DNA from: Nitrospirae bacterium CG2_30_70_394
GTDB lineage: Bacteria; CG2-30-53-67; CG2-30-70-394
Assembly: GCA_001873295.1 (NCBI GenBank)
Contig: MNYW01000026.1
Coordinates: 1-47,205 of the forward strand
Direction of reading: 5' to 3'
DNA length: 47,205 nucleotides
The translations under genes were made by a program, and so were the position numbers. Below the pieces are notes generated by a model, which ran no database searches, had not been told where the DNA came from, and saw only the letters and a list, made by a program, of their open reading frames with translations. This document shows positions 9,879 to 39,513 of this stretch, in pieces. Position 1 is the first letter of the stretch. Each line of letters opens with the position of its first letter.

Positions 9879-10307
9879 CTACAGCATCCCGACTTGCAGG
9901 CGGGCGACCTGGCTCATCCGGTCGGGACCCCAGGGGGGATCCCAGACGAGGGTGACCTTGGCCTCGGTTACCCCGGCGACCTGGCGCACGGTCTGCTCGA
10001 CCTCACCGGGGAAGGTCTGGGCGACGGGACAGCCCGGGGCGGTGAGGGTCATGGCGATGGCGACTTGGCCGCCCGCTTCCACGTCGAGGCGGTAGACGAG
10101 GCCAAGCTCGACGAGGTCGGCGGGGAGCTCGGGGTCGTGAACCGTGTGCAGGGCGGCGATCACCCGCTGGCGGAGCGGTTCGCACGCGGGGGCGCAGGTG
10201 CCGGGCGGCCCACCGCCGGGGTGGGGCGGTGCGGCTGGAGTGGGCGCGACTTCACCCCCCTCACCGGTGGCGGCGCCCAGGGGGAATCTCCGGCGCAGGG
10301 GTTCCAT
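9879..10307 (-). CDS. sufT: SUF-associated DUF59/SufT-like Fe-S assembly protein
   Basis: The C-terminal 100 aa, LRQRVIAALHTVHDPELPADLVELGLVYRLDV...AMTLTAPGCPVAQTFPGEVEQTVRQV...VTLVWDPPWGPDRMS, forms a DUF59 core. The ATG overlaps the sufU stop (TGATG). The protein has a P/G-rich N-terminal extension of about 45 aa. Confidence 0.8.
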   Translation of the reverse strand: MEPLRRRFPLGAATGEGGEVAPTPAAPPHPGGGPPGTCAPACEPLRQRVIAALHTVHDPELPADLVELGLVYRLDVEAGGQVAIAMTLTAPGCPVAQTFPGEVEQTVRQVAGVTEAKVTLVWDPPWGPDRMSQVARLQVGML

Positions 10308-10753
10308 CACTCGGTGCACACGGTCTCGTGTTGGTTCTCGATCGCCGCCTTCATCACGTGCCATCCCAAGGTGGCGCACTTGATCCGCATGGGGAACTCG
10401 TGGACTCCGGCGAGGACCGCCAGCTTGCCGAGCGGCGCCGCCGCCTCGCCTTTGTGGGTGAGCAGGTGGTGGACGGACTGGAAGAGGGCCTCCACCTCCG
10501 CAATCGGCTTGCCCTTGATCGCCTCGGTCATCAGCGAGGTTGAGGCGACGGCGATGGCGCAGCCAACGCCTTCGAAGCCGACGTCGGTGACGATGTTGTT
10601 TTCCACCTGGAGGTAGACCGTGAACTCGTCGCCGCACAGGGGGTTGAAGCCGAACGCCTGGTGGTTGGCGCCGCCGGGCTTGTGCTGGAAGTTCCGCGGC
10701 CGGCGGTTGTGGTCGAGGATCACGTCTTCGTAGAGGGCGCGCAGGTCGTTCAT
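10307..10753 (-). CDS. sufU: SufU-type (NifU/IscU-like) sulfur acceptor/scaffold
   Basis: The protein begins MNDLRALYEDVILDHNRRPRNF. It has the three-Cys signature NPLCGDEF, GVGCAIAVAS and RIKCATLGW. The ATG overlaps the sufS stop (ATGA). Confidence 0.9.
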   Translation of the reverse strand: MNDLRALYEDVILDHNRRPRNFQHKPGGANHQAFGFNPLCGDEFTVYLQVENNIVTDVGFEGVGCAIAVASTSLMTEAIKGKPIAEVEALFQSVHHLLTHKGEAAAPLGKLAVLAGVHEFPMRIKCATLGWHVMKAAIENQHETVCTE

Positions 10754-12009: not shown

Positions 12010-13472
12010 CGTGGCTCCTCCAGCAACTCGGTAAGGCGGCGATCGACGCGCGCGCGGACCGCTGCGGCCACCGTGGGGTCGGCGACGCTCGCCACCACCT
12101 CGGTGGCAAAGGCGGCGGTGAGGATCTGACGCGCCTCGTCCGCATCGAGCCCACGGGCGCGCAGGTAGAAGAGGGCCTCGTCATCGAGTCGGCCGACGGT
12201 GGCGCCGTGGCTGCACTTCACGTCGTCGGCGTCGATGCGCAGGATCGGCCGGGTGTCCGCCTCGGCGCGGTCGGAGAGGAGCAGATTGGCGTTGGTCAGG
12301 CGCGCGTCGGTCTGTTGGGCGCCGGGGTGGACGTGGACCAGGCCGGAGAAGCAGCCACGGCCACGGCCGGTGACGATCTGCTTCACGAGCTCGCGCGAGC
12401 GGGTGGCCAGGGCGTCGTGGTCGATGCGGGTGGTGAGGTCGAGGTGGTCGCCCCCGCCCGCGAGGGCGAGGCCGAAGAGTTGCGCCGAACCACCCGCGCC
12501 CGCGAGATGGGTGGCGAACTCGGTGCGGGCGAGCCGGCCGCCGAGGGCGAGGAGGTGGGCGGTGAGGCGGCTATCGCACCCCTGGGTCACCGCCACGGTG
12601 GCGGTGTGGAAGCTGCCTGGCTCGTGAACGAGCTTGAGGTAGTCGAGTTGAGCGCGGGCGCCGAGGTCGATCTCGGTCACCGGGTCGGCGAAGGCGTTGG
12701 CCGTCCCGAGGGCGACATGGTTCTCCACCACCGTGGCGTGCGAGCCAGCGCCGAGGACGATCAGGTTGCGCGGCGCGGAAAAGAGCGGCTCGCTGGTGGC
12801 GGTGGTGAGGAAGAGGAGCTCCACCCTCCCCGCGTCCACGCCGTCGGCAACGAACAAGACCGCGCCGTCGCAGGCCAAAGCCATGTTCAGCTCCGCCACC
12901 GGCTGATCCGCTCCGAGGTGGTGGCCAAGGTGGTGGGCCATCTCGTCGGGCCACCGCTCGATCGCTTGGGCCCACCCCGCCAGGCGCAGCGCCGACCGTT
13001 CGGGCGGCGCCGCCGGCCCGCCGCACGGTCGCCCATGGACGCCGGTGGGGTCATCCCCGGCCGGGGTCGGGCTTACGCCAGCCCCCCTCGGGGATGGCGC
13101 GCCCCGCCCGATCCCGTCTGCCGAGAGGGAGGGAGCAAGGCAGAGGGAGGGGGCGAGGCGGCCATTCACAAAACAGAGGCGGGCCTTGGCGCCAGGAGCC
13201 ATGAGCAGGGGGGCGAGATCGCCGGTGTCGAGGCCGATGCACTGCTCTCCCGGCGGCGCGAACGCCACCGGTGCCACCGCCGCCAGGGAGGTGTAGTGCC
13301 ACCGTTCGTCGCGGGTCGCCGGCAGACCGGTGGCGGCGAAGCGGGCCATCGCCGCCGCGCGCAGGTCGGCGAGCCAGGGGGGCTCCGCGCCGACTCGCCG
13401 GGTCGCGCGCGCGCGAAAGAGGCTCCGGTAGTGGTCCACCGCTGTGGTGGGGTTGAGCACCTTGGTCGTCAT
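12006..13472 (-). CDS. sufD: Fe-S cluster assembly protein SufD
   Basis: Position between sufC and sufS supports the call, as does the beta-helix C-terminal region (RIDADDVKCSHGATVGRLDDEALFYLRARGL). ATG at 13472 has the RBS gagaggagag 4-5 nt upstream. The ORF is also open to a GTG at 13511 that overlaps the sufC stop. Confidence 0.85.
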   Translation of the reverse strand: MTTKVLNPTTAVDHYRSLFRARATRRVGAEPPWLADLRAAAMARFAATGLPATRDERWHYTSLAAVAPVAFAPPGEQCIGLDTGDLAPLLMAPGAKARLCFVNGRLAPSLCLAPSLSADGIGRGAPSPRGAGVSPTPAGDDPTGVHGRPCGGPAAPPERSALRLAGWAQAIERWPDEMAHHLGHHLGADQPVAELNMALACDGAVLFVADGVDAGRVELLFLTTATSEPLFSAPRNLIVLGAGSHATVVENHVALGTANAFADPVTEIDLGARAQLDYLKLVHEPGSFHTATVAVTQGCDSRLTAHLLALGGRLARTEFATHLAGAGGSAQLFGLALAGGGDHLDLTTRIDHDALATRSRELVKQIVTGRGRGCFSGLVHVHPGAQQTDARLTNANLLLSDRAEADTRPILRIDADDVKCSHGATVGRLDDEALFYLRARGLDADEARQILTAAFATEVVASVADPTVAAAVRARVDRRLTELLEEPR

Positions 13473-13507
13473 CAGACTCTCCTCTCGCGTGGGGGCCACC
13501 GGACCCG

Positions 13508-14272
<765 letters not shown>

Positions 14273-14345
14273 GGTGGTTTCCTGGGGAGTGGGTGGGGCC
14301 GCTTGGGTGGAGGGCGGGGCGGCGTGGCTCTGCATGGGAACTCGT

Positions 14346-15788
14346 TCACCCGATCGCATCTTCGAGGCTCACCCCGAGGAGCTTCCGCGCCTCCACCGCG
14401 AACTCCATGGGCAGCTCCCTGAAGACCTCTTTGCAGAAGCCGTTCACCAGCATGGAGACCGCCTCCTCCGGGGCGATGCCGCGCGCCTGGCAGTAAAAGA
14501 GTTGATCCTCGCCGATCTTCGACGTGGAGGCCTCGTGCTCCACCCGCGCGCTCGGCTCCTTCACCTCGATGTACGGGAAGGTGTGGGCGCCGCAGGTGTC
14601 GCCGATCAGCAGCGAGTCGCACTGGCTGTAGTTGCGCGCTCCCGTCGCCCCCTTCGCTACCTTCACCAGGCCGCGGTAGCTGTTCTGGCCCCGTCCCGCG
14701 GAGATCCCCTTGGCGAGGATGGTGGAGCGGGTGTTGCGGCCGAGGTGGACCATCTTCGTGCCGGTGTCCGCCTGCTGGTGGTGGTGGGTGAGGGCGACCG
14801 AGTGGAACTCACCCACCGAGTCGTCGCCGCGCAGGATGCAGCTCGGGTACTTCCAGGTGATCGCCGAGCCGGTCTCCACCTGGGTCCACGAGATCCGCGA
14901 CCGCGCGCCGCGGCACTCGCCGCGTTTGGTGACGAAGTTGTAGATGCCGCCCTTGCCCTCGGCGTCGCCCGGGTACCAGTTCTGCACCGTCGAGTACTTG
15001 ATCCGAGCCTCCTCCTCGGCGATCAGCTCGACCACCGCCGCGTGCAGTTGGTTCTCGTCGCGCATCGGCGCGGTGCACCCCTCGAGGTAGCTCACCTGGC
15101 TGCCGCGGTCGGCAATAATCAGGGTGCGTTCGAACTGGCCGGTGGCCGCGGCGTTGATTCGGAAGTAGGTGGAGAGCTCCATCGGGCAGCGCACCTTCGG
15201 CGGGATGTAGCAGAACGAGCCGTCGGTGAAGACCGCCGCGTTGAGCGCCGCGAAGAAGTTGTCCGCCGGCCCGACCACCGAGCCGAGGTAGCGGCGCACC
15301 AGCTCCGGGTGGCTGCGCACCGCCTCGGAGAAGGAGCAGAAGAGGATCCCCTCCTCGGCGAGCCGGTCCTTGAAGGTGGTGGCCACGGAGACCGAGTCGA
15401 AGACCGCGTCCACTGCCACCCCGGCGAGGGCCTCGCGCTCGGCCAGGGGGATGCCGAGCTTGTCGTAGGTGCGCAGCAGCTCCGGGTCGATCGCGTCGCC
15501 GGACCGCGTCCCGGCGCGTCGCTTCGGCGCCGAGTAGTAGGTGATCGCCTGGTAGTCGATCGGCGGGTAGTGAACCCAGGCCCAGGTGGGCTCCACCATC
15601 GTTTGCCAGTGGCGGAAGGCAGCGAGGCGCCAGGCGAGCAGCCAGTCGGGCTCGCCCTTCTTTTCCGAGATGAGGCGAATCACCGCCTCGTTCAGGCCGG
15701 GCGGGACGCGGTCCTCGTCGATGGGGGTGACGAAGCCGTCGCGATACTCCTTGGCCAACAGCGCTTCCACGGATTGCTTGCTATTCAT
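14346..15788 (-). CDS. sufB: Fe-S cluster assembly scaffold SufB
   Basis: A 480-aa protein starting [19 protein letters not shown]. Conserved blocks seen: [27 protein letters not shown] and [15 protein letters not shown]. The ATG overlaps the stop of the upstream rrf2 gene (ATGA). Confidence 0.92.
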
Positions 15789-16261
15789 CGCTGCCTCCTT
15801 TGCGTGCGCGACGCCGCCACGGGGTGGAGCTCGAGGGGGTGGGTCGAACCATGGAGGGGGCTGGCCGCCACCATGTCCGCCAGGGTCACTCCCTCCAAGG
15901 CCGCCTGGACGATCTCGTTGACGCGCATCCACGGGGCGCGGGTGGCGCACGTCGCCTCGTGGTCGCAAAGCCCCTCGCCGTCGCTGCACGCGGTGACCGT
16001 CACCGGCCCCTCGAGGGCGGTGATCACGTGCGCGATGGTGATCTCCTCCGGCGGCCGCGCCAGGCGGTAGCCGCCGAGGGCGCCGCGCCGAGATGCCACC
16101 AGCCCCTTGCGGGTGAGCCCCTTGAGGAGCTTGGCGACCGTCGGCAGAGGGATGCGGCTCTCCTCTGCCACCTCCGCCGCCGTGTGCAGGCGAAACGGCG
16201 CCGCGGCGATCTTCACCATCACCATCGTCCCGTAGTCCGCGAGCTTGCTGATTCGAAGCAT
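15785..16261 (-). CDS. Rrf2-family transcriptional regulator heading the suf operon
   Basis: Motifs seen: [19 protein letters not shown], winged helix [41 protein letters not shown], and a Cys cluster C..GEGLC....C consistent with Fe-S ligation. Confidence 0.85.
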
Positions 16262-23767: not shown

Positions 23768-25309
<1,542 letters not shown>

Positions 25310-25667: not shown

Positions 25668-26879
25668 TTACTCGCCGGTCGCCGCGCGGTGGAGCTTGAT
25701 CTCCACCTTCTCTTCCAAGGTGGCGTAGTACCGCTTGAGGATCTCCACCACCTCGGGACGGGAGAACTCGGGCGGGACGTCCTCGCCCTCGGAGAGCATC
25801 TTCCGCATCTTCGTCCCAGAGAGGAGCATCCGATCCTCCTTGCCGTGCGGGCAGGTCTTCATCGACGCCATGCCATCGCACTTCTTGCAGTAGAAGGTCC
25901 AGTCGATCTTCATCGCCTGGGTCTCCATGGCGCCCTTGGGGATCTCCTCGAAGATCTTGTGGGCGTCGAAGGGGCCGTAGTAGTCGCCGACGCCCGCGTG
26001 GTCCCGTCCGACGAGGAGGTGGGAGCAGCCGTAGTTCTGCCGGAAGAGGGCGTGGAGCAACGCCTCGCGCGGACCGGCGTAGCGCATGTCCAGCGGATAG
26101 CCCGCCTGCACGTAGGTGTCCTTCACGAAGTAGTTCTCGGTCAGGGCGTTGATGCAGTCGCGGCGCACGTCCGCGGGGATGTCACCCGGCTTGAGCTTGC
26201 CGAGGAGCTGGTGGATGAGGACGCCGTCGGTGATCTCGATGGCGATCTTCGCCAGGTACTCGTGGGAGCGGTGCATCGGGTTGCGGGTCTGGAAAGCCGC
26301 CACCGTGTTCCACCCCTTCGACTCGAAGATGGCGCGGGTCTGGGCCGGGGTCATGTAGATCCCCTTGAACTCGGTAGGGAAGCTCCCCTCGGAGAGGACC
26401 TTCACCGGCCCGGCGAGGTTCACCTCCTCCTGCTCCATCACCTTGGCGACCCCGGGATGCTCCATGTCCGTGGTCTTGAAGACGCACTGGCACTCGTGGG
26501 CCTTGTCGATGGTGTACTTCTCCGTGACCTTCATGGTCCCCATGATCTCGCCGCTCTCCTCCTCCACCAGGGCGATCTCCTCGCCGAGCTTGATGGAGTC
26601 CGCCTTGCCCTGGGTGGTGGAGAGGGTGATCGGGATCGGCCAGAAGAGGCCGTTGGCCATCTGGTAGCGGTCGCACACCCCCTGCCAATCCCCCTTGGTC
26701 ATGAACCCTTCCAGGGGGGTGAAGCCGCCGATCCCCATCATGATGAGGTCGCCGGTCTCGCGCGAGGTCATCTTCACCTGGGTGAGCCCCTGCGCCTTTG
26801 CCAACTCCTTCTTTTGGGCATTGCCGGTCAGAAGCAGGGGTTTGAGATCACCTCCACCGTGCGGTCGAACGAGGGCCAT
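25668..26879 (-). CDS. sat: Sulfate adenylyltransferase (ATP sulfurylase), homo-oligomeric Sat type
   Basis: A 403-aa protein starting MALVRPHGG. Motifs seen: [21 protein letters not shown], and a C-terminal Cys/His cluster [16 protein letters not shown]. The strong RBS aaggaga lies 6 nt before the ATG at 26879. Confidence 0.92.
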
Positions 26880-27095
26880 GAGCTTTCTCCTTGTGAACCC
26901 GAGGGGGGTGGTCGCGGCAGGCAGACCACCGCCCCGATTGAACAAAAAGGCCGCGGCAGGGAAGCATGGAGGGGGCTTGTGGGTCAACCCGGAAACGGTG
27001 TCCGTGGCCGCAGGCGCGGACCTTTTCGGCGTTGCGGCAGGCGTGGCCTGGCCCGCGCGACGTGGCCGCCTTGCATTGGCGTGGGGAGCCTGGCT

Positions 27096-27110
27096 ATCGT
27101 CCCGGACGAT
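27096..27110. promoter_or_regulatory. Candidate operator: perfect palindrome ATCGTCC-C-GGACGAT upstream of the second rrf2 gene
   Basis: A 7-bp inverted repeat with a 1-bp spacer, about 43 bp upstream of the ATG at 27153, in the sat/rrf2 divergent region. The functional assignment is inference only. Confidence 0.35.
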
Positions 27111-27152
27111 TCGGATGAATGGTGTCCGATTCCTCTGCGGAGGCCCTCCCCG

Positions 27153-27635
27153 ATGCGTCTTACCAAGGCTGGAGACTACGCCATGCGCGGGCTGATCTAT
27201 CTCGCCCGCCGGCCGCAGGGGGAGTTTTCCCTGGTGGGGAACATCGCCGCTGCGATGGAGGTTCCGGAGAGCTTCCTCGCGAAGATTTTTCAGAATCTGG
27301 CGCGCGCCGGTTTGGTGCGCTCCAACCGCGGCTACGGCGGCGGTTACTGCCTGGCGCGGCCGGCGGCGGCGATCACCCTTTTGGAGGTGATCGAGTGCGT
27401 GGAGGGGCCGATTGTGTTCAACGACTGCACCGACCCGCACGCCGCCGAGGACGAGACGATGGCCTGTACCTCCGCCTGCGGCGCCCAAGGGGTGTGGCAA
27501 GAGGTGCAGGAGGCGGTCCGCGCCATCCTGGAAAAAAAGACCATGGACGAGCTGGCCGCCACCGCCGCGCTGCCCGGTTCCGTTGCTCAGCCGATCACCC
27601 TCGGGCCGCGGCGCTTCGCCCGCCCAGGCCGGTAG
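27153..27635 (+). CDS. Rrf2-family transcriptional regulator (IscR-like)
   Basis: Motifs seen: [18 protein letters not shown], w[42 protein letters not shown], and downstream Cys residues (C..C..C region). Confidence 0.85.
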
Positions 27636-27689
27636 CCACCCCAGTCCATTCACCCCGCTTCCCACACCGGATCGATTCGCAGGAGAGAT

Positions 27690-28904
27690 TTGATGGCCAC
27701 CACCCAGACCCCTGCCCCCCCGCGTCGCATCTACATGGACCACGCGGCCACCGCCCGCCCCCTGCCCGAGGTGGTGGCGGCGATGCTCCCGTACCTGGCG
27801 GAGGAGTACGGCAGCCCGCAGTCGTTCCACCGCCAAGGCAGCGGTCCGGCCCACGCCCTCAAGCGGGCGCGCGAGCAGGTGGGGGGTCTGATCGGGGCGC
27901 CGGCGAGCCAGATCACCTTCACCAGCGGCGGCATCGAGGCGAACAACCTGGCGGTGAAGGGGGCGGCGCTGGCGTATGAGCGGCGCGGCAAGCACATCGT
28001 CACCACCGAGGTGGAGCACTACTCGGTCCACCACTCGGTGAAGTTTCTGGAGAAGCTTGGCTTCGAGACCACCTTGGTGAAGGTCGACGGCTACGGCCGG
28101 GTCGACCCGCAGGCGGTGGTCGACGCCCTGCGCGACGACACGATCTTGGTGAGCGTGCAGCTTGCTAACCAAGAGGTGGGGACCCTTCAGCCGGTGGCTG
28201 AGGTGGCCCGCCTGGTGAAGGCGCACAACAAGCAGATCATCGTCCACACCGACGCCACCTACGCGGTAGGGCAGATCCCGGTGGACGTGGCCACCCTCGG
28301 CGTCGACCTCCTCTCCCTCACCGCCCATCGCTTCTACGGCCCGAAGGGGGCCGGCGCCTTGTACGCCGGCAAGGGGGTGCGCCTGACGCCGCTGATCCAC
28401 GGCGGGGTGCAGGAGAACGGCAAGCGCGCCGGCACCGAGAATGTCCCGGCGATTGTCGGCCTCGGGGTCGCCGCTGAGCGCGCCGCCGCGGAGATGGAGG
28501 CGCGGGTCGAGAAGGTCCGCGGCCTGCGCGATCGGCTGGAGCGTGGCCTCCTCGAACGGATCGAAAACGTGCAGGTGAATGGCCACCCCAGCGAGCGGCT
28601 GCCCGGCTACCTCGACCTCTCCATCGAGGGGATTGAGGGGGAGGGGACCTTGGTACGCCTCGACCTCGACGGCATTGCCGTCGCCTCGGGCTCGGCGTGC
28701 GCCTCCATGGCCCTGAAGGGGTCGCCGGTGCTGCACGCGATCGGCGTCGACGAGGTCCTCGCCCAGGGCTCCATCCTCATCACCCTCGGGATCGACAACA
28801 CCGACGCCGACATCGACGACGCCCTGGAGGAGATCCCCAAGGTGGTGGCGACCCTGCGCGCCATGTCGCCTATCTACGGCAAGCGGAAGCACTACTTCCG
28901 CTGA
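27690..28904 (+). CDS. IscS/NifS-family (class V aminotransferase fold) protein lacking the PLP-binding lysine
   Basis: Motifs seen: [38 protein letters not shown], and the persulfide loop ASGSACAS. Where the family has S-G-H-K-I/V-Y-GPKG, this protein has [10 protein letters not shown] (Arg codon cgc at 28329-28331). Confidence 0.85.
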
Positions 28905-29107
28905 CCGCGCCCCTGGACTCGGGATGACCACGATGCAGACCACAGAAAAACGGCTGGCCGACCGCCGGCGTCTTCTCCACCCACCGGGAGGAGCGGGCTC
29001 CTACCCGCCCCCCCTGGCCGCCGCTGGCTGGTCGGGCCTGTTGCGCCGGCAGGAGCCGGCTCTTCCCTGAACGAGATCCACCCTCCCTAACCCCCAAGGA
29101 GTCCCCC

Positions 29108-29515
29108 ATGCAGCACACCGACTACAGTGCCAAGGTGATCGACCACTTCATGAACCCCCGCAACATGGGCGAGCTTGCCGGGGCGAACGCCGTGGGCACG
29201 GTGGGCAGCCCCGCCTGCGGCGACATGATGGACATCTACCTGAAGGTCGAGGGCGACCAGATTGTCGACGCCTCGTTCAAGACCTTCGGCTGTACCGCCG
29301 CGATCGCGAACAGCTCGATGATGACGGAGATGGTCAAGGGAATGAGCCTCCAGGATGCGGAGAATCTGAAGAATCGCGACATCGAGGCCGCCCTCGACGG
29401 CCTCCCGCCGCACAAGATCCACTGCTCCACCCTCGCCGCCGACGCCCTCCACGAGGCGATCAAGAGCTACAAGGAGCGCCAGGGTGCGACCCAGGGCAAG
29501 GTGGCGGCGTCATGA
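29108..29515 (+). CDS. iscU: IscU/NifU-N type Fe-S scaffold
   Basis: Motifs seen: VIDHFMNPRNMG, GSPACGDMM, FKTFGCTAAIA, and LPPHKIHCSTLA. All three ligand Cys plus the Asp are present. The RBS aaggag lies before the ATG. Confidence 0.9.
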   Translation: MQHTDYSAKVIDHFMNPRNMGELAGANAVGTVGSPACGDMMDIYLKVEGDQIVDASFKTFGCTAAIANSSMMTEMVKGMSLQDAENLKNRDIEAALDGLPPHKIHCSTLAADALHEAIKSYKERQGATQGKVAAS

Positions 29516-29757
29516 GCGAGGCCCCGCTCGCGGTGGACGGCGAGCTCGACACCTTCGGCATGTGCTGCCCGATGCCCATCTACGCCACCTCCCAGAAGTT
29601 GAAGGAGCTGGCCGCCGGGCAGGTACTCAAGGTCTCCTCCGACGACCCGGGGTTCCTCAAGGACCTGCCGGCGTGGTGCAAGCAGACCGGCAACCCGTGT
29701 TTGCGGATCGGTGAAGAGGAGTCCGGGGAGTACGTGGGGTACGTGTGCAAGCAATAG
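29512..29757 (+). CDS. tusA: TusA/SirA-family sulfurtransferase
   Basis: An 81-aa protein with the motif LDTFGMCCPMPI (CPxP). The ATG overlaps the iscU stop (ATGA), indicating translational coupling. Confidence 0.85.
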   Translation: MSEAPLAVDGELDTFGMCCPMPIYATSQKLKELAAGQVLKVSSDDPGFLKDLPAWCKQTGNPCLRIGEEESGEYVGYVCKQ

Positions 29758-29844
29758 CTTTATTCACCCGCCTGGCTCCTCTACCCTCCCCGGGCCGCAC
29801 ATCGCGCGCAAGCGATGGCTCGAAACCTACAGGAGGTGTCCACG

Positions 29845-30219
29845 GTGGAAGCTCAGAAGAAGGTGCTCATCATCCAGACCAGCGGCCTGAAGACACCCGA
29901 GCGGATTCCCGCCCCCTTCTTCATCGCCACCACCGCCGCGGCGATGGACATGGACGCCACCGTGGTCTTCACCATGCAGGGCGCCTCCATTGTCCGGAAG
30001 GGTGCCGCGGAGCGGACCCGGATCAAGGAGGGTGGGGCCACCATCGCCTCCTTCCTAGACCAGGCGATCGAGAGCGGGGTGAAGCTGATGGTGTGTCATC
30101 AGGCCCTGGACTTGGTGGGGATGGAGCCGGACGACTGCATCGAGGCGGTGCAGGAGGTGGTCGGCGCCGCCGCGATGCTCGACATGGCGCTCGAGTCGGA
30201 CATCGTCCTCACCTTCTGA
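29845..30219 (+). CDS. DsrE/DsrF/TusD-family sulfur-relay protein
   Basis: The protein has the family-typical start KKVLIIQTSG, then PFFIATTAAAMDMD, and the conserved-position Cys in LMVCHQALDLVG. GTG at 29845 lies 8 nt after aggagg. The ORF is also open from ATG 29815. Confidence 0.75.
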   Translation: MEAQKKVLIIQTSGLKTPERIPAPFFIATTAAAMDMDATVVFTMQGASIVRKGAAERTRIKEGGATIASFLDQAIESGVKLMVCHQALDLVGMEPDDCIEAVQEVVGAAAMLDMALESDIVLTF

Positions 30220-30291: not shown

Positions 30292-30687
30292 GTGGACCAC
30301 CACCACGTCGCCATCGCCCTAATCAGTCGCCACGGCCGCTGGCTGGTGCAGCAGCGGCGCGCCGGCGTCCCTCTCGCTGGGAGCTGGGAGTTTCCTGGCG
30401 GCAAGGTGGAGGCGGGCGAGAGTGGGGCGACCGCCCTCCTGCGTGAGGTGATGGAGGAGGTCGGGATGGCGGTGACGATCGACCGCGCCCTACCTCCGCT
30501 GACCCACGACTACGCCGACCGGCGGGTCACCCTCCACCCCTTCGTCTGCACTGCCACCGATGCGCCGGTGGCGTGCGAGGGCCAGCTCCTCCGCTGGGTG
30601 ACGGCGGAGGAGCTGGCCAACCTAGAGATCCCGGCCGCGAACCGCGCCCTCCTTTCCCACCTGCAAGCAGGGGAGGGCGCGCGCTAA
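30292..30687 (+). CDS. NUDIX hydrolase (MutT-like)
   Basis: The Nudix box is GSWEFPGGKVEAGESGATALLREVMEEVG. Length is 131 aa. The start is GTG. Confidence 0.8.
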   Translation: MDHHHVAIALISRHGRWLVQQRRAGVPLAGSWEFPGGKVEAGESGATALLREVMEEVGMAVTIDRALPPLTHDYADRRVTLHPFVCTATDAPVACEGQLLRWVTAEELANLEIPAANRALLSHLQAGEGAR

Positions 30688-32376: not shown

Positions 32377-32823
32377 TCAGGGGGTGCTGCGATCGACCCG
32401 CTGTTGGCAGTACGCGTACAGCGCGTCGTAGACGATCCACTGGGCGGCGTTGATCTGGTGATCGTCCGCGTAGCCGAGGTGGCGAAACCCCTCGGCGATC
32501 GCCTTGAGCCCCGCGGCCTCGGGCTGGTTCCAGAGGGCATTGTCGGTATCCGCGCCGTTGACGATCTTGGCCAGCAGCACGATCGCCGGGTCCGCCATCA
32601 GGTCGTACTTCTTCACGATCGCGTCAAAGGAGCACTCCCTTCCGTGGTGGCCCAGCTCGACGCCGGCCACGTCGTAGGGGATCGCACCCTCTTGCCGCGC
32701 GACCTCCAGCACCTGCTCGGCCGGCACAAAGACGAACTCCGCCGCGGGATCGACAAACTTGGCGATCAGCCAGGGGCAGGCCACCCGGTCGACCTTGACG
32801 TGCTCGCGTGTGACCCACTTCAT
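32377..32823 (-). CDS. Chromate-resistance ChrB C-terminal-domain (Chrome_Resist) protein
   Basis: A 148-aa protein, MKWVTREHVKVDRVACPWLIAKFVDP.AEFVFVP. It parallels the segment WVDRVASAWLIQRFIDPQPRFVWL of the adjacent full-length ChrB. The RBS aaggag is present. Confidence 0.8.
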   Translation of the reverse strand: MKWVTREHVKVDRVACPWLIAKFVDPAAEFVFVPAEQVLEVARQEGAIPYDVAGVELGHHGRECSFDAIVKKYDLMADPAIVLLAKIVNGADTDNALWNQPEAAGLKAIAEGFRHLGYADDHQINAAQWIVYDALYAYCQQRVDRSTP

Positions 32824-32882
32824 GATTTGCTCCTTGGGTGGTGGGCGGGCAACCCCGCCAAGAGCGGGGCGCCGGGCGCCAC

Positions 32883-34241
32883 TCAGCCGATTAGGGTCTC
32901 GATCAAGCCGGCGGCCCCGCAGGCGCCGATCACCGGGATGATGCCGACCTTGAACCGCCACAACGCCACGAAGGCGGCGACGCTGATCGCGCCCGCGACC
33001 CACTCGAAGGGGGCCGCGAACCCCTGCGGCCAGAGGACGTGGTAGGCGAAGAAGAGCGCGAGGTTGAGCACCACCCCGACCACCGCGGCGGTGATGCCGG
33101 TCAGCGGCGCGGTGAGTTTGACCTCGTGGCGGCTTGCCTCCACCGCCGGCGCGCCGGCCAGGATGAAGAGAAACGACGGCAGGAAGGTGAAGTAGGTGGC
33201 GATTCCCGCGCCCGCGGCCCCGGCCAGGGCCAGGTGCGTGGGACCGAAGAGCGCCCGGGTCCAGCCGCCGACGTAGCCCACGAAGGCGACGATCATGATC
33301 AACGGGCCGGGGGTGGTCTCGCCGAGGGCCAGACCGTCGACCATCTGCGCGCCGGTGAGCCAGTGGAACTGCGAGACGCCGCCTTGGTAGACGTAGGGCA
33401 GGACCGCGTAGGCGCCGCCGAAGGTGACCATCGCCGCCTTGGTGAAGAACCAGCCCATCCGGGTGAGGGTGGAGTCCCCACCGTAGAGAGCCACCAGCAC
33501 CGCCATCACCCCCGCCCACAACCCGAGGCCGATGAGCAGGTAGTGGCTCAGCCGCACCCAGGAAAGGCGCGCCCGGTCCGGCAGCGGCGTGTCGTCGTCG
33601 ATGAGCGCCGGGCCGTAGCCGTTGCCCGCGAGCCCGTGGCCGCCGCCTCCGCGGAACCAGTCGGGGGCGACCTGGCCGCCGATGAAACCGATGGTCCCGG
33701 CCCCGACCACGATGGCGGGGAAGGGGACGTGGAGGGCGAAGATGGCGACGAAGGCGGCGGCCGCCATCGCCCACAAGACGCCATTCGTCAGGGTCCGGGA
33801 GCCGATGCGATAGGCGGCGAACAGGACGATGGCGGTCACCGCCGGCTTCATCCCATACAACAGGCCGGCGACCACCGGGACCTTGCCCCAGGCCAGGTAG
33901 ACCCAGGTCAGCCCCATGAGGATGAACAGGGACGGAAGGACAAAGAGCGTCCCGGCGAGGATCCCGCCCCAGGTACCGTGCATCAGCCAGCCGATGTAGG
34001 TGGCGAGCTGCTGCGCCTCCGGGCCGGGGAGGACCATCGCGTAGTTGAGGGCGTGCAGGAAGCGGCGCTCGGAGATCCAGCGGCGCCGCTCCACCAGCTC
34101 CTGGTGCATCATGCTGATCTGGCCGGCGGGGCCGCCGAAGCTGATGAACCCCAGCTTCAGCCAGTAGAGGAAGGCCGCGTGCAGGGAGACCGCGGCAGGG
34201 GTGCCACGCTCCACGGTCGCGGTGGGGTAGGGGATCGACAC
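32883..34241 (-). CDS. chrA: Chromate transporter ChrA
   Basis: A 452-aa polytopic membrane protein. The duplicated CHR motifs are FGGPAGQI...H and TFGGAYAVLPY. GTG is preceded by aaggaga. Confidence 0.9.
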   Translation of the reverse strand: MSIPYPTATVERGTPAAVSLHAAFLYWLKLGFISFGGPAGQISMMHQELVERRRWISERRFLHALNYAMVLPGPEAQQLATYIGWLMHGTWGGILAGTLFVLPSLFILMGLTWVYLAWGKVPVVAGLLYGMKPAVTAIVLFAAYRIGSRTLTNGVLWAMAAAAFVAIFALHVPFPAIVVGAGTIGFIGGQVAPDWFRGGGGHGLAGNGYGPALIDDDTPLPDRARLSWVRLSHYLLIGLGLWAGVMAVLVALYGGDSTLTRMGWFFTKAAMVTFGGAYAVLPYVYQGGVSQFHWLTGAQMVDGLALGETTPGPLIMIVAFVGYVGGWTRALFGPTHLALAGAAGAGIATYFTFLPSFLFILAGAPAVEASRHEVKLTAPLTGITAAVVGVVLNLALFFAYHVLWPQGFAAPFEWVAGAISVAAFVALWRFKVGIIPVIGACGAAGLIETLIG

Positions 34242-34254
34242 GGTGTCTCCTTGA

Positions 34255-35217
34255 TCAGGGTGAGATCAGGCCGTCGCGGCCGGTGGTGTACAGGGCGTCC
34301 AGCACCGGGGCCATGGCGGCGAGCAGGTGGTCGTCATCGGGGGCGTGCTGGCGGCAACCGGCGAGGATCGCCTCGAAGCCGGCCCCCTCCGCCACCGGCG
34401 GCCCCCCCGCGTCCAGGTAGTGGACCAGCTCCGCCAGGCGGGTGAGTCCCGGGTCGGACTCGAGACCGAAGCTCGCTATGAGCACCTCGAAGGTGACCCG
34501 CTCGCCGATGTGGGTGAAGGTGGCGCCGTCGAAGTCGAAGCCGACCACCTTCGCCGATCGGGCGGCCACCTTCTTCAGCCAGACGAACCGTGGCTGCGGG
34601 TCGATGAACCGCTGGATAAGCCAGGCGCTGGCCACCCGATCGACCCACAGCCCGGCGCGGGTTGCCCAGGTGCGACCGTGAAAGGCGGCGGGGTCGAGAC
34701 GCGCGATGGCGCCGGCGCGGGTGGCCGGCTCCTCCGGGGAGAACCACCGGTTGATGGCGCCTTCGGCGCCCGCGAGTGCCGCCGCCGCCTCCTTTTGGCT
34801 CACCGCCGGGAAGTAGTCGATGGCCGCCAGGGCCGCGGAGTCCCGCTGCAGCTTGCGCAACCGGCGGCGGGCCGCGGCCTCGCCATGGTGGGCGGCGTCG
34901 CGCCGCAAGGCGGTGGCCGCTGCGATCAACTCGCCGTACTCGCCGCCGCGCGCGAAGAGGTCACGGAGCGTCTCGTCCGTGTGGCCTTGCGGGCCAAGCT
35001 CCAGGAGGTAGGCGGTGCCCCCCTGGTCGCGCACCGCCGCCGCCTGCTCGGCGAGCGCCGCCGCCAGGGGCTCTTGCCACGGCAGGAGGTAGACCCCGTC
35101 GCGCAGCATCGCCGCCCCCAGCCCCTTGATCCCGCGCCACAACCGCACCCGCACCGCGCCCACCTCGCCCGGGAGGCGGGTGATCAGGAGGAGCCAGGTG
35201 GGGGAGGCCGCAACCAT
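34255..35217 (-). CDS. chrB: Chromate resistance regulator-like protein ChrB
   Basis: The N-terminus WLLLITRLPGEVGAVRVRLWRGIKGLGAAMLRDGVYLLP is typical of ChrB. A Chrome_Resist C-terminal domain is present. The gene sits immediately upstream of chrA. Confidence 0.85.
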   Translation of the reverse strand: MVAASPTWLLLITRLPGEVGAVRVRLWRGIKGLGAAMLRDGVYLLPWQEPLAAALAEQAAAVRDQGGTAYLLELGPQGHTDETLRDLFARGGEYGELIAAATALRRDAAHHGEAAARRRLRKLQRDSAALAAIDYFPAVSQKEAAAALAGAEGAINRWFSPEEPATRAGAIARLDPAAFHGRTWATRAGLWVDRVASAWLIQRFIDPQPRFVWLKKVAARSAKVVGFDFDGATFTHIGERVTFEVLIASFGLESDPGLTRLAELVHYLDAGGPPVAEGAGFEAILAGCRQHAPDDDHLLAAMAPVLDALYTTGRDGLISP

Positions 35218-35809
35218 GTGTTACGCATATTACAGTGTTGTTACGTCTGCACAATAATCTTCCAGGGAGGGGGCAGAGGTCGGGGCGCGGTCGCTGTTGA
35301 AGCCCCGTCCGTGCGCCGGCCGGAGGGCGGCCCCGCCCGCGCCCCGCGCGGGGGTCACAACCCGGGGCTCTCTGCCCGATCCACCGTTCGCCGGCGGCCA
35401 GCCTGGACCGTCCCGGCCGCCGCGCCGCGGGGGGGTGCAGCACACGCCCCACCGGGCGCTCAGGATCCGGCAAGGTTGTGCGCGGTCGACCCGCAACCGG
35501 CACGTGACACCCTGGCCGCACCGTGTTCGATCCGGCGGAAGATGGGCGCCTCTGTGGTCGGGCGCCGGTTCGCCGGTCGTGGCGGACAGGGATTGACCCC
35601 CGAGGGCAGCGGTGGCGCGCGGCCGCCGTCGCGCTTGGCGATCTGGCGCACCGATTTTCAGCGCGGTGGCGGCGGGCGAGCGGTGCGCCACGGTCTGGCG
35701 TGGGGAGGCGCCCCGCAACTCGGTCCGCCACCGGCGGCGGGCCGGGGCGCGGGTCAGGGGGGCGCTGGCCGCCTTCCCGGCGCGGGTGGCCGCGGACCCG
35801 TCGCGCCGC

Positions 35810-37066
<1,257 letters not shown>

Positions 37067-37120
37067 GGGGGACCGGGAGAGGGAGGCAGAGGTTGCGCCA
37101 ATCTATCGCAGATCTCGCTG

Positions 37121-37765
37121 CTACTGCTCTTCCTTCTTCGTCTCCTTCTTGCGCTCGACCACTAGGTCAACCAGGCCGTACGCCACCGCCTCCTCCGCCG
37201 ACATGAAGTTGTCGCGCTCGGTGTCGCGCTCGATCTGCTTCAGCTTCTGGCCGCTGTGGCGGGCGAGGATCTGGTTCAGGGTGTCGCGCGTCTTGAGGAT
37301 CTCCTTGGCGTGGATCTCCACGTCGGTCGCCTGCCCCTGAAAGCCCCCGAGGGGTTGATGGATCATCACCCGCGCGTGCGGCAGGCAGTGGCGCTTGCCC
37401 GGTGCCCCGGCGGCGAGGAGCACCGCCCCCATGCTCGCTGCCATGCCGATGCAGATGGTCGACACGTCGGGCTGGATGTACTGCATGGTGTCGTAGATCG
37501 CCAGCCCCGAGCTCACCATGCCGCCGGGCGAGTTGACGTAGAGGGAGATGTCCTTGGTGGGGTCGTCCGCCTCCAGGAAGAGGAGCTGGGCGATCACCGC
37601 GTTGGCGATCATGTCGTCGATCGGGGTGCCCAAAAAGACGATGCGGTCCTTGAGTAGCCGCGAGTAGATGTCGTAGGCGCGCTCTCCCCGCGGCGTCTGC
37701 TCGATCACCATCGGGATCAGGTTGGCGTGCGGGGCGGCGGGGAGGTCAGACGTGGGCCAGGCCAT
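37121..37765 (-). CDS. clpP: ATP-dependent Clp protease proteolytic subunit ClpP
   Basis: Motifs seen: [19 protein letters not shown], catalytic GMAASMGA, and MIHQPLGG. Confidence 0.95.
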
Positions 37766-37838
37766 CGGGCTCTCCTAGATCAAAGGGGTCGGGCGGGGCG
37801 CATGTTCCGCCGGGAAGGCGCGGCGCCAGGGCGAGTGG

Positions 37839-39137
37839 CTAGGCCGCCTCGCCCACTTCCTTGAGGGTGGCTTGCGCCAGGCAGAGGTCGAAGGCCTTCT
37901 CCTCGCGCAGCCGGTCGTGGAGCGGGTCAAGGGAGCCAAACTGGCTCTGGTAGTACTGGCGCAGGACCTCGGGGGTGACCCCCACCTCCTGCGCCTCTTT
38001 TTGCAATTGCGCCTGGATCTCCTCGTCGCGGATCTCCACGCTGTGCTCCTCGGCCACCCGGTCGAGGATGAGGGTCAGGCGGGCGCGTTGCTCCGCGTCA
38101 CCGCGGAGCTCCTCGTGGAGCTCCGCCTCGCGTTTGTCCACCTGGTCTGCGTCCATCCCCTCGCCGAGGAGGCGGACCACTCGGTTCTTCACCATCATTT
38201 GGAGCTGACCTTCCAAGAGGGTGGTCGGGACCTCGATGGGGTGAAGCGCCACCAGCTTCTCGGCGATCTCCGCGTGGTAGGCGCGGCGGTTGGCCTCGGT
38301 GATCCGGGCGGTGAGGCCGTCACGGATCGACTGCTTGAGGGCGTTCAGGTCGTCGTGGTCGAGGTCGCGGGCGAAGTCGTCATCGACGGCCGGGAGGATC
38401 TTCTCCCGGATCTCCTTCAGAATGACCTTGAAGGTGGCCTGCTGGTTCGCGAGGTCCTTCCGGTAGTCGGCGGGGAAATCGATGGTGAGGTCGCGCACCT
38501 CGCCGGCGTGCATCCCCTCAATCCCCGCCTCGAGCTGCGGGAAGATCCGCCCCGTGCCCACCTCCACCGCGAACCCCTCCCCGCTGCCCCCCTCGAAGGG
38601 TTTGCCGCCGACCGTGCCGGTGTAATCGATGATCCCCACTAGACCGTGCGCCAGGGTGGCGTTCGCGTCTTCGATCTTGTTCAGGGTGGCGTTGGCTTCG
38701 CGCAGGCGTGCAAGGGTGGAGTCGACCATCTCGTCGGTGACCTCCACCGGCCGCTTCGGGAGCTCGAGCTTGGCCAGGTCCTGGAGTTCGAAGCGCGGTA
38801 GGACGTCCACTTCCGCGAGGTAGACGAAGGGCTGGCCCTCCACGATCGAGATCTCCTCCAGGGTCGGTGGGCCGATCGCCTTCAGATCGTGCTCGGCGAG
38901 CGCCTTCGGGAAGGACTCCTGGAGGAGCTGGTTGCCCACGTCCTCCTTCACCCCGTCGCCGAACCGCTGGCGGAGGACCGACAAAGGCGCCTTGCCGGGG
39001 CGAAAGCCGGGCAGGCGGGCGTTCTTCCGGAGCGCCTGGTAGGCGCGCTCGAAGTGCTGGCTGGCCTCTTCAGCGGGCACGGTGACTCGCACCTGGTAAC
39101 GGGTGGCGGTGAGCTCCTGGGCGGTGGTCTCCATCAT
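37839..39137 (-). CDS. tig: Trigger factor
   Basis: The N-terminal ribosome-binding motif is LPGFRPGKAP. An FKBP-like middle domain and the position upstream of clpP-clpX support the call. The start is the ATGATG at 39137/39134; the ORF-track extension to 39197 overlaps tRNA-Leu. Confidence 0.92.
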   Translation of the reverse strand: MMETTAQELTATRYQVRVTVPAEEASQHFERAYQALRKNARLPGFRPGKAPLSVLRQRFGDGVKEDVGNQLLQESFPKALAEHDLKAIGPPTLEEISIVEGQPFVYLAEVDVLPRFELQDLAKLELPKRPVEVTDEMVDSTLARLREANATLNKIEDANATLAHGLVGIIDYTGTVGGKPFEGGSGEGFAVEVGTGRIFPQLEAGIEGMHAGEVRDLTIDFPADYRKDLANQQATFKVILKEIREKILPAVDDDFARDLDHDDLNALKQSIRDGLTARITEANRRAYHAEIAEKLVALHPIEVPTTLLEGQLQMMVKNRVVRLLGEGMDADQVDKREAELHEELRGDAEQRARLTLILDRVAEEHSVEIRDEEIQAQLQKEAQEVGVTPEVLRQYYQSQFGSLDPLHDRLREEKAFDLCLAQATLKEVGEAA

Positions 39138-39165
39138 CCTCTCTCTCGAAAAACGGGGCGGTGGC

Positions 39166-39249
<84 letters not shown>

Positions 39250-39302
39250 CTGCGGGGACAAACAAAGACGGCCGAGAGTTGCCTCTCGGCCGGGATGTGG
39301 GT

Positions 39303-39378
39303 TGGTGAGCCGTGAAGGGATCGAACCTTCGACCCGCGGATTAAGAGTCCGCTGCTCTACCAGCTGAGCTAACGGCCC
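39303..39378 (-). tRNA. tRNA-Lys (anticodon CTT), CCA encoded
   Basis: Manual fold: GGGCCGT-TA-GCTCAGCTGGTAGAGC-A-GCGGA-CTCTTAA-TCCGC-GGGTC-GAAGGTTCGATCCCTTC-ACGGCTC-ACCA. Confidence 0.9.
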
Positions 39379-39436
39379 ACAAGAAAGACGATGAATGCGC
39401 CCTACGCGCTGCGCCAAGCGATGGTACTCAGGTTCG

Positions 39437-39513
39437 TGGGGTGAGTGAAGGGGCTCGAACCCTCGACAGCCGGATTCACAGTCCGGGGCTCTACCAACTG
39501 AGCTACACTCACC
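39437..39513 (-). tRNA. tRNA-His (anticodon GTG) with genome-encoded G-1 opposite C73, CCA encoded
   Basis: Manual fold: G-GTGAGTG-TA-GCTCAGTTGGTAGAGC-C-CCGGA-CTGTGAA-TCCGG-CTGTC-GAGGGTTCGAGCCCCTT-CACTCAC-C-CCA. Confidence 0.9.

Follow-up and report, generated by a model that had tools for sequence, protein, structure and literature searches.

The window analysed here, 47,205 nucleotides of contig MNYW01000026.1 (assembly GCA_001873295.1) from Nitrospirae bacterium CG2_30_70_394, contains an operon of five plus-strand genes, rrf2, iscS-like, iscU, tusA and dsrE3-like, that lies divergent to a gene for ATP sulfurylase (sat). On balance these genes probably make up a minimal iron-sulfur (Fe-S) assembly module of the ISC/MIS type that would take its sulfur from protein-bound sulfane sulfur instead of cysteine. 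This reading is built on the observed gene content, the loss of catalytic residues from the IscS-like protein, the retention of carrier and ligand cysteines, purifying selection, and genetic linkage in multiple lineages. Textbook Fe-S biogenesis begins with a cysteine desulfurase that depends on pyridoxal phosphate (PLP). All of the component families of the operon are already known, as is one PLP-less IscS, that of Archaeoglobus fulgidus (AfIscS). What is apparently new, from sequence comparison, is that PLP-less IscS proteins form a large clade across domains, that this clade has TusA/DsrE carriers as systematic partners, joined in many lineages by a double zinc ribbon, and that the A. fulgidus model protein belongs to it. 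The operon and its divergent neighbor are laid out as follows (lengths in amino acids, aa).

25668-26879, minus strand: sat, ATP sulfurylase, 403 aa (Pfam PF01747, ATP-sulfurylase, and PF14306, PUA_2; NCBIfam NF003166, 543 bits against a cut-off of 387)
26880-27152: divergent non-coding region between sat and rrf2, exactly 273 bp
27153-27635, plus strand: rrf2, IscR-like regulator of the Rrf2 family, 160 aa (Pfam Rrf2, 124 bits)
27693-28904, plus strand: iscS-like gene, lysine-less, 403 aa (Pfam Aminotran_5, 222 bits)
28329-28331, plus strand: codon for Arg213, which stands in for the PLP Schiff-base lysine (Lys206 of E. coli IscS)
28698-28700, plus strand: codon for Cys336, the loop cysteine (Cys328 of E. 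coli IscS; Cys321, the cluster ligand, of AfIscS)
28905-29107, plus strand: spacer between iscS-like and iscU, 203 bp, no assigned function
29108-29515, plus strand: iscU, Fe-S scaffold, 135 aa (Pfam NifU_N, 165 bits)
29512-29757, plus strand: tusA, sulfur-carrier protein, 81 aa (Pfam TusA, 73 bits), with an ATGA overlap with iscU
29845-30219, plus strand: dsrE3-like sulfur-carrier gene, 124 aa (Pfam DsrE and DrsE_2)

All six genes lie where the initial annotation of this DNA had placed them, on either side of the 273-bp gap, and the iscU-tusA overlap that it described is borne out by the coordinates. The Pfam domain calls for the operon and sat proteins are all above gathering scores.

A lysine-less IscS with a conserved loop cysteine

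The canonical active-site motif of IscS proteins is SxSxHK, in which the final residue is the PLP lysine. The window protein reads SLTAHR, and alignment bears out the earlier claim that it lacks the lysine, with Arg213 in its place. Three further positions have changed, with Ile81, Tyr190 and Leu362 where E. coli IscS has Thr76, Gln183 and Arg354, and all three residues that mark the site of a PLP cysteine desulfurase (Lys206, Gln183 and Arg354 in E. coli IscS) are missing. Within the E. coli enzyme, His104, Asp180, Gln183, Lys206 and Cys328 are each indispensable; the K206A and Q183E variants are inactive, and K206A retains some PLP binding (PMC9978102). Judged by its residues, the window protein cannot be a cysteine desulfurase.

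The architecture of the family is retained. The protein has a class-V aminotransferase fold of type I (IscS/NifS) with a mobile cysteine loop, and iscU is its neighbor. An AlphaFold model (mean predicted local distance difference test, pLDDT, 87) aligns with human NFS1, AfIscS and E. coli IscS at template modelling (TM) scores of about 0.9, and its flexible segment 335-341 holds Cys336. Furthermore, His109 and Asp187 (the equivalents of His104 and Asp180) and Thr248 are kept in nearly all lysine-less proteins. The best NCBIfam models for the IscS-like protein and IscU are those of the clostridial-type NifS and NifU, both just missed: the NifS model TIGR03402 gives 460 bits against a cut-off of 531, and TIGR03419 (NifU_clost) gives 183 bits against 188. 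The SufU model scores 73 bits with the window IscU, in which the ligands expected of a scaffold-type protein, Cys37, Asp39, Cys62, His105 and Cys106, are all present.

The loss of the lysine extends far beyond this genome. The close clade (at least 78% identity) comprises 29 sequences, three of which gave no match to the search pattern; all 26 scorable members have Arg, and the lysine-containing form in near relatives that would mean decay was thus not found among them. Likewise, each of the 120 nearest database homologues lacks the lysine (Gln in 82, His in 16, Ala in 9, Arg in 4, others in the rest), none has an equivalent of Arg354, and all 120 keep the loop cysteine. Identity within this set falls to 58% after four close relatives, and the named labels are mostly Chloroflexota. 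Across the subfamily the lysine position holds Gln, Asp, Arg, His, Ala, Ser, Thr, Asn, Glu, Met, Leu or Pro, and the Arg354 position is always Leu, Val or Met, save for one Gln among the 120 nearest homologues. These homologues carry the database names 'cysteine desulfurase' or 'NifS', and metabolic reconstructions may therefore over-count desulfurases, perhaps in Dehalococcoidia, Nitrospira, Thermodesulfovibrionia, Bathyarchaeia and others.

A wider survey used a profile of lysine-less proteins against species-representative genomes. The 79 loci considered are the matches listed, the best of which is 56% identical and among which the window's own species does not appear, and they were annotated by our own calling of open reading frames (ORFs) and iterative searches with hidden Markov models (HMMs). 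Residue counts include 26 lysine-containing proteins, one over-long ORF having been left out. The Arg354 equivalent is present in 0 of 63 lysine-less and 25 of 26 lysine-containing proteins, the Gln183 equivalent in 4 of 63 and 25 of 26, and the loop cysteine in every protein of both classes (63/63 and 26/26). There are also class-specific signature positions, both in IscS and in the partner IscU. A midpoint-rooted neighbour-joining tree, descriptive only and without bootstrap, separates the two classes cleanly, with the window clade near the class boundary beside Nitrospirota-labelled sequences. The lysine loss claimed for the window protein is thus real, and is better described as part of a concerted set of changes to the active site by which an entire subfamily is defined.

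Selection on the gene was gauged from the ratio of nonsynonymous to synonymous substitution (dN/dS) between the window and relatives at 78-81% identity. The value for iscS-like is 0.19, and that for guaA is 0.22-0.25; iscU (0.07-0.09), dsrE (0.08-0.12) and sat (0.10-0.15) are lower, and iscU, tusA, dsrE, rrf2 and sat all fall within 0.07-0.35. Because its dN/dS resembles that of guaA and because the losses are subfamily-wide with the cysteine kept, the IscS-like protein is, on this evidence, a conserved non-catalytic IscS paralogue under purifying selection and not a decaying gene.

The best sequence matches of the window protein in the PDB are seven very recent entries (9WEP, 9WER, 9WEW, 9WF8, 9WFB, 9WFE and 9WFY), all of which keep the lysine; the PDB set used in our Foldseek comparison is older than these entries. 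Their chains, of 406 aa and labelled 'cysteine desulfurase', differ from one another at the equivalents of Thr76, Gln183, Ser203 and Arg354, and the pattern resembles a set of mutants made from a partly degenerate IscS with ties to the lysine-less family. Proteins of the 9WFE type, like that of locus L014 described below, retain the lysine although the Gln183 and Arg354 equivalents are gone, and may be intermediates. A literature search found no paper or organism behind them, and the entries suggest that a closely related protein is under study by others.

Linkage to TusA and DsrE carriers

The two small proteins encoded at the end of the operon have the hallmarks of sulfur carriers. TusA has the Cys-Pro-x-Pro motif of its family as Cys19-Pro-Met-Pro, and its PDB matches are TusA-family proteins; its score with the NCBIfam TusA equivalog model is 43 bits, below the cut-off of 78. 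The closest solved relative of the window DsrE is 3MC3 (expectation value, E, 5e-20), whose active cysteine aligns with Cys84. This structure is SSO1125, a DsrE3A (PMC4175335, PMC11094781), and the second cysteine of the Cys-x7-Cys motif of DsrE3A is Gly in the window protein. The earlier assignment to the DsrE family therefore stands, and the match to 3MC3 identifies the subfamily as DsrE3-like, not TusD- or TusBCD-like. The DsrE3-like subfamily is of modest size: at 50% identity it comprises 360 clusters with E of 1e-3 or less, 57 of them with E of 1e-10 or less. Modules of Chloroflexota have a longer DsrE of about 161 aa, with an insertion typical of DsrE2-type proteins (Pfam DrsE_2), and one locus, L057, has both DsrE types next to tusA. 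Among module proteins the carrier cysteine is present in 125/125 TusAs and 119/120 DsrEs, and the ligands are intact in 111-113 of 113 partner IscUs.

Within the 79 loci, 54/63 lysine-less iscS genes have tusA or dsrE on their own strand no more than 4 kb away, as do 4/27 lysine-containing ones, the latter count including the over-long ORF (Fisher p = 2e-10, uncorrected for shared ancestry). Three of the four lysine-containing cases, from Dehalococcoidia, are linked only through a lysine-less copy that has tusA and dsrE directly downstream. In these loci (L022 5439-10481, L027 1003-6522 and L042 4893-10208) a canonical lysine-containing iscS-iscU pair stands directly upstream of lysine-less iscS, iscU, an optional zinc-ribbon gene, tusA and dsrE. 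In some Dehalococcoidia, therefore, both systems coexist and neither replaces the other. The fourth case is L014 (7543-9858, Nitrospirae bacterium SZUA-242), with the order rrf2-iscS-iscU-tusA; it is one of the Nitrospirota-labelled sequences that neighbor the window clade in the tree. Its IscS keeps the lysine, whereas the Gln183, Arg354 and Thr243 positions are occupied by Cys, Gln and Ala. From these residues it may be an intermediate that branches near the root of the lysine-less clade.

The same association was recovered from the opposite side. A profile of window-type DsrE was run against metagenome contigs and gave 80 loci, 36 of them with at least 2.2 kb on both sides. In these 36, tusA is found in 33, an iscS-like gene in 28, and tusA with iscS-like and iscU in 25. 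Over all 80 loci, 49 of the 50 scorable iscS-like genes lack the lysine (42 Asp, 3 Gln, 3 Arg and 1 Asn), and all those that reach the Arg354 position lack that Arg.

There are at least four independent gene orders, distributed over about eight bacterial groups (by NCBI labels) and archaea. The window clade has rrf2, lysine-less iscS, iscU, tusA and dsrE3; Dehalococcoidia, Anaerolineae and Chloroflexia have lysine-less iscS, iscU and a zinc-ribbon gene followed by dsrE2B-like and tusA, or end with tusA and dsrE3; Nitrospira, Thermodesulfovibrionales and Ca. Magnetobacterium have rrf2, sometimes tusA, then lysine-less iscS, tusA and iscU; sediment metagenomes have tusA, dsrE3, the Asp form of iscS and iscU; and a Bathyarchaeota genome has tusA, lysine-less iscS and iscU as overlapping genes. 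Linkage that is kept while the order is shuffled is a classical signature of functional coupling. The initial annotation had asked whether its five genes are conserved together elsewhere: a core of four (lysine-less iscS, iscU, tusA and dsrE) is, far beyond this lineage and in several orders. The rest of the claimed composition is narrower, since the IscR-like rrf2 stands beside the core genes in Nitrospirota-labelled lineages and sat does not accompany them outside the window clade.

A cysteine-rich double zinc ribbon is likely to be a further component of the lysine-less module, although the window has none. It was seen as a separate gene of about 65 aa directly 3' of iscU in Dehalococcoidia, Anaerolineae and Chloroflexia (e.g. 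L007 7582-7794 and L004 7587-7784), and fused to the C-terminus of IscU (180-210 aa in all) in Acidobacteriota, Aminicenantes and some Chloroflexota. The iscU loci of this observation are L005, L011, L028, L036, L038, L043, L046, L050, L054 and L065; the zinc-ribbon HMM partly catches IscU through extended ORFs.

The one characterised member of the lysine-less class can be placed within this framework. AfIscS has Asp199 in place of the lysine, binds pyridoxamine phosphate (PMP) and has no desulfurase activity, and its loop Cys321 ligates a [2Fe-2S] cluster on IscU (PMC8918507, PMC7585200). The D199K variant is also inactive, and the role proposed for AfIscS in print is that of a pure scaffold and ligand (PMC8918507). 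We rebuilt the sequence from an alignment, found it in a protein collection and fetched its genomic locus (AE000782.1). AfIscS2 falls in with the Asp-type proteins of the tusA-dsrE3-iscS-iscU loci, which are closest to it (E 8e-138 for L099), and its best 120 homologues, from Archaeoglobi, Hadarchaeia, Bathyarchaeia and others, comprise 119 with Asp and a single one with Lys, the engineered D199K; all 120 have the loop cysteine. The window protein shares with it the replaced lysine, the kept loop cysteine and the adjacent iscU, and matches the 4EB5 structure of AfIscS with E 1e-104 and TM scores of 0.89-0.96. At the A. fulgidus locus a DsrE3-like ORF of the window type (L168 5638-5991, called as 94 aa) lies 9 bp upstream of iscS2, iscU follows 5 bp downstream, and tusA is about 6 kb upstream. 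The Asp-type match and the DsrE3-like neighbor together place the window operon and the A. fulgidus complex in one module family.

Possible sulfur routes into IscU

We propose that the operon encodes a relay that ends on the IscU scaffold. The IscS-like protein retains the fold of IscS, along with the architecture for dimerization and for docking of IscU and the mobile cysteine loop; it would dock on IscU and relay persulfide through Cys336, which could also serve as a fourth cluster ligand, as does Cys321 in A. fulgidus. Upstream of it, the carriers would be the DsrE3-like protein (Cys84) and TusA (Cys19). Sulfur transfer from DsrE3A to TusA, as thiosulfonate, is irreversible in Metallosphaera cuprina (PMC4175335), and because that direction has been measured we place the carriers in the order DsrE3, TusA, IscS-like/IscU. 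The last step would then be the reverse of the transfer from IscS to TusA in E. coli. Finally, the IscR-like Rrf2 protein, with its three conserved cysteines, would sense Fe-S status and control the operon, and in the window lineage the divergent sat would come under its control too, which would couple the activation of sulfate to the module.

That sulfur enters IscU through TusA and DsrE, and not by cysteine desulfuration, had been suggested in the initial annotation. Given the co-conservation, the absence of a lysine form from near relatives and a pathway that is only partly described, the suggestion is well supported by comparative genomics, as something that we infer. Its remark that it knew of no characterised system with exactly this composition needs qualification: the A. 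fulgidus IscS2-IscU pair is structurally known, and the link to TusA/DsrE was in no paper that we found. Our literature search met no description of a connection between PLP-less IscS and TusA/DsrE, and an earlier mention is possible in the paper that defined MIS (Garcia et al. 2022) or in the 2019 TusA review by Tanabe, Leimkuhler and Dahl.

A broader version of the proposal is plausible, if somewhat short of even odds. It holds that cysteine-independent Fe-S biogenesis is widespread, with a dead IscS paralogue as persulfide-relay and docking subunit, fed by TusA and DsrE3 (or DsrE2B) and sometimes assisted by a double zinc ribbon. If true, it would answer where the A. fulgidus IscS-IscU complex obtains its sulfur, and would do the same for many 'minimal' ISC systems of Chloroflexota, Nitrospirota, Desulfobacterota, Bacillota, Archaeoglobi and Bathyarchaeia. 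Within the ISC lineage, this may be a state that does not depend on PLP chemistry. Cluster assembly without desulfurase function in AfIscS-IscU was listed as an open question in a 2022 review, and the PLP-less protein has been a structural curiosity for more than ten years with its sulfur source open (PMC8918507). The linkage data turn that question into an experiment with four small proteins.

Several points weigh against sulfur delivery by the carriers. We infer each transfer step and the way in which sulfur flows, as well as the primary source of that sulfur and the regulation. The association statistics ignore shared ancestry. Of the 63 lysine-less loci, 9 have neither tusA nor dsrE within 4 kb, and the carriers may thus be dispensable there or encoded elsewhere; several of these nine, from Acidobacteriota and Aminicenantes, have IscU fused to the zinc ribbon. 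Since a complete SUF system, including a SufS-SufU pair of the active type, is also encoded by this organism, there is no obvious need for the module in bulk Fe-S supply. In A. fulgidus the DsrE3-like ORF lacks the N-terminal first beta-strand 'KKxLxxQTSG' that is present in all of its relatives; in this strain the gene may have suffered a truncation or frameshift, or its recorded sequence may contain an error. Marinoni et al. (2012) reportedly obtained AfIscS-IscU with a [2Fe-2S] cluster by expression in E. coli, without the A. fulgidus TusA or DsrE. Lastly, the residues of E. coli IscS that touch TusA are Trp45, Glu49 and Asp52 (PMC2854127), and a manual alignment finds Ser, His and Lys at these positions of the window protein; because these contacts differ, the E. 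coli docking mode of TusA cannot be assumed.

The main rival explanation, rather unlikely, is that the IscS-like protein and IscU build clusters from free sulfide, a route put forward for other minimal systems in anaerobes, with the former as structural partner and cysteine ligand, and that TusA and DsrE buffer or detoxify reactive sulfur or export it to a co-regulated pathway. Many of the hosts are anaerobes of sulfidic settings (Dehalococcoidia, Thermodesulfovibrionales, Desulfobacterales, Archaeoglobi and Bathyarchaeia), and the nine lysine-less loci without nearby carriers also speak for it. There are precedents as well: the proposed pure scaffold and ligand role of AfIscS (PMC8918507), the SMS system, which runs on sulfide and not on cysteine (PMC13066941), and the DsrE4 proteins, which have been proposed to act in reactive-sulfur detoxification (PMC11094781). 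For SMS, complementation of an E. coli strain without isc and suf is credited to Dussouchaud et al. (2025), as cited in PMC13066941. However, free sulfide leaves unexplained the tight coupling between lysine loss and carriers in at least four gene orders, when lysine-containing MIS-type pairs of similar organisms have no carriers. The overlaps of iscU with tusA (ATGA, in the window) and of tusA with lysine-less iscS (in Bathyarchaeota) suggest joint production and function, and the module is also present in the aerobe Nitrospira.

Less probable still is a sulfur-trafficking relay with an end product other than Fe-S clusters, such as tRNA or cofactor thiolation, in which the IscU-like protein would be a sulfur acceptor in the manner of SufU. 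E. coli provides a precedent in IscS-TusA-TusBCD (PMC2854127), and SufU itself is a sulfurtransferase with the IscU fold (PMC13066941). The window IscU, however, is of the scaffold type by its preference for NifU_clost over SufU (183 and 73 bits) and by its ligands Asp39 and His105, and a separate true SufU is encoded in the window. Neither the operon nor the surveyed loci contain tusBC, tusE/dsrC, mnmA, thiI, moaD or similar genes, the regulator is IscR-like with a cysteine trio, and AfIscS-IscU does hold a [2Fe-2S] cluster (PMC7585200).

We regard residual catalysis by the IscS-like protein, through non-covalent PLP or PMP chemistry or on another substrate and with Arg213 in a new role, as very improbable. 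The conservation of His109, Asp187 and Thr248 would fit it, as would the binding of PMP by AfIscS (PMC8918507) and of some PLP by E. coli K206A (PMC9978102). The diversity at the lysine position, with twelve residue types, nevertheless argues against a specific new catalytic role; the Arg that holds the substrate carboxylate (the Arg354 equivalent) is always replaced; and the E. coli K206A and Q183E variants, AfIscS and its D199K variant are all inactive.

The idea that the gene is a decaying paralogue, redundant to SufS and in chance juxtaposition with its neighbors, could draw on the complete SUF system and the loss of several catalytic residues, but it is scarcely credible and, as far as sequence evidence reaches, is refuted by the conservation data: an intact reading frame under constraint like that of housekeeping guaA, a conserved loop cysteine, fold and linkage, and a lysine-less state in hundreds of homologues across phyla and archaea.

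Genomic setting and relation to known systems

Further features of the window that bear on the operon and its surroundings are these.

10750-12009, minus strand: sufS (motif FSGHK; TIGR01979, 583 bits against a cut-off of 475)
15785-16261, minus strand: Rrf2-type regulator of the SUF operon (TIGR02944, 140 bits against a cut-off of 111)
23768-25309, minus strand: guaA
25614-25643, minus strand: terminator-like hairpin with T-run directly 3' of sat (13-bp stem with 11 GC pairs, then TTTTTTTT)
27113-27127, plus strand: candidate operator, inverted repeat GGA-N9-TCC, 25 bp 5' of the rrf2 ATG
30292-30687, plus strand: Nudix gene

The window is about 70% G+C, and mechanical ORF lists are for this reason rich in antisense artefacts; real genes were chosen by codon-position GC, ribosome-binding sites and domain searches. 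An example is a 1091-aa mechanical ORF (25668-28943, minus strand) in which sat is extended antisense through rrf2 and iscS-like. Antisense 'Sat' matches in other loci were traced to this ORF in the HMM and disregarded. The start of iscS-like is the ATG at 27693, with an AGGAGA ribosome-binding site, and not the TTG at 27690 with which the mechanical ORF begins. For dsrE the GTG at 29845 is likelier than the ATG at 29815, since AGGAGG lies 7 nucleotides 5' of it and the 124-aa form is also called on public contigs.

A complete SUF operon occupies 9879-16261 on the minus strand, with the Rrf2-type regulator, sufB, sufC, sufD, sufS, sufU (above the TIGR01994 cut-off) and a sufT-like gene. The motif and score of sufS verify the earlier report of a canonical SUF system 15 kb away, and the presence of two Rrf2 regulators in the window suggests one for each Fe-S system. 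The Rrf2 protein of the operon is below every NCBIfam equivalog cut-off (best RirA, 84 bits; IscR, 69 bits against 208). Its Cys92, Cys105 and Cys109 align with the cysteine trio of Rrf2 genes that adjoin iscS in 31 other loci, and the trio is kept beside lysine-containing and lysine-less iscS alike, in keeping with an IscR-like regulator that senses Fe-S clusters.

Only in the small clade of the window itself (the window, L003 and L088-L090) does a divergent sat stand next to the module. The gene at the 3' end (46192-47205) was considered as aprA, which would have made sat dissimilatory, and was rejected as nadB; no further sulfate-reduction gene lies within the window. Alignment of five related sat-rrf2 intergenic regions leaves GGA-N9-TCC as the sole common block besides the start-codon flanks. 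Rrf2-family boxes have a 3-N9-3 format, e.g. the RirA box TGA-N9-TCA, and the block resembles them in format as a candidate operator only. A scan for sigma-70 promoters over 25.5-30.8 kb, including the divergent region, gave no consensus match, and host promoters may be of another type.

The iscS-like/iscU spacer is poorly conserved, measuring 44 bp in L003, about 176 bp in L089 and from 44 to about 200 bp among close relatives. It contains a GC-rich palindromic stretch (GGCCGCCGCTGGC...GGCC), partly kept in L088 and L089. Its fold stability does not exceed that of shuffles (z = -0.32), its sole ORF, of 48 aa, is not conserved, a zinc-ribbon gene is absent, and an Rfam scan gave no match in it. 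Over the whole window that scan found three tRNAs only, far from the operon; the three genes lie in a row (39169-39512, minus strand) upstream of a tig-clpP-clpX cluster (35810-39206). In L005 a tig-clpP-clpX cluster is found about 4 kb upstream of a lysine-less iscS-iscU pair. A cluster of the chromate-resistance type (32377-35220, minus strand) comprises a gene for a chrB C-terminal domain, the chrA transporter and a full-length chrB. The window matches contigs from many metagenomes (at least 73 contigs); relatives at 84-91% identity carry two NCBI labels 'Nitrospirae bacterium', and the next ClpX relatives (about 65% identity) include Thermodesulfovibrionales, Nitrospira and NC10, which places the window in an uncultured lineage that is deep-branching and high in GC.

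Five known systems invite comparison. MIS, the minimal iscS-iscU system of anaerobes, consists of a cysteine desulfurase and a scaffold with no additional components and is the least studied of the Fe-S systems (PMC13066941). The operon shares with it a core of just iscS and iscU, with no HscBA, Fdx or IscA, and an Rrf2 regulator, which is often present there, but differs in its dead desulfurase site, its two added sulfur carriers and two NCBIfam scores that fall just under the equivalog cut-offs. The SufS-SufU and SufS-SufE pairs likewise use a dedicated protein persulfide carrier to feed an Fe-S scaffold; their persulfide, however, is made by an active PLP enzyme, and a canonical SUF operon is separately present in the window.

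In E. coli, IscS, TusA and the DsrE-family TusBCD proteins form a relay for tRNA thiolation. The full Tus relay (IscS-TusA-TusBCD-TusE-MnmA) resembles the operon in combining an IscS-family protein, a Cys-Pro-x-Pro TusA and a DsrE-family protein with an active cysteine. There, in contrast, sulfur leaves an active IscS, TusBCD is a three-gene heterohexamer where the operon has a single DsrE3-like gene, and the TusA-contact residues of E. coli IscS are not kept in the window protein. The DsrE3A-(DsrE2B)-TusA carriers of M. cuprina and of sHdr systems resemble the operon in the carriers themselves: the window DsrE is nearest to DsrE3A, Chloroflexota modules have a DsrE2B-like protein, and L057, with both DsrE types beside tusA, recalls the archaeal dsrE3A-dsrE2B-tusA cluster. 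Their partner is a dissimilatory oxidation complex, whereas here the partners are the IscS-like protein and IscU, and no hdr, lipoamide dehydrogenase or LbpA gene neighbors the window operon.

The A. fulgidus IscS2-IscU complex (PDB 4EB5, 4EB7, 4HVK and 4R5F) shares with the window operon a lysine-less IscS fold with its loop cysteine, adjacent iscS and iscU genes and an upstream DsrE3-like ORF. It differs in having Asp instead of Arg at the lysine position, in being archaeal, in the distance of about 6 kb to tusA, and in having neither Rrf2 nor sat.

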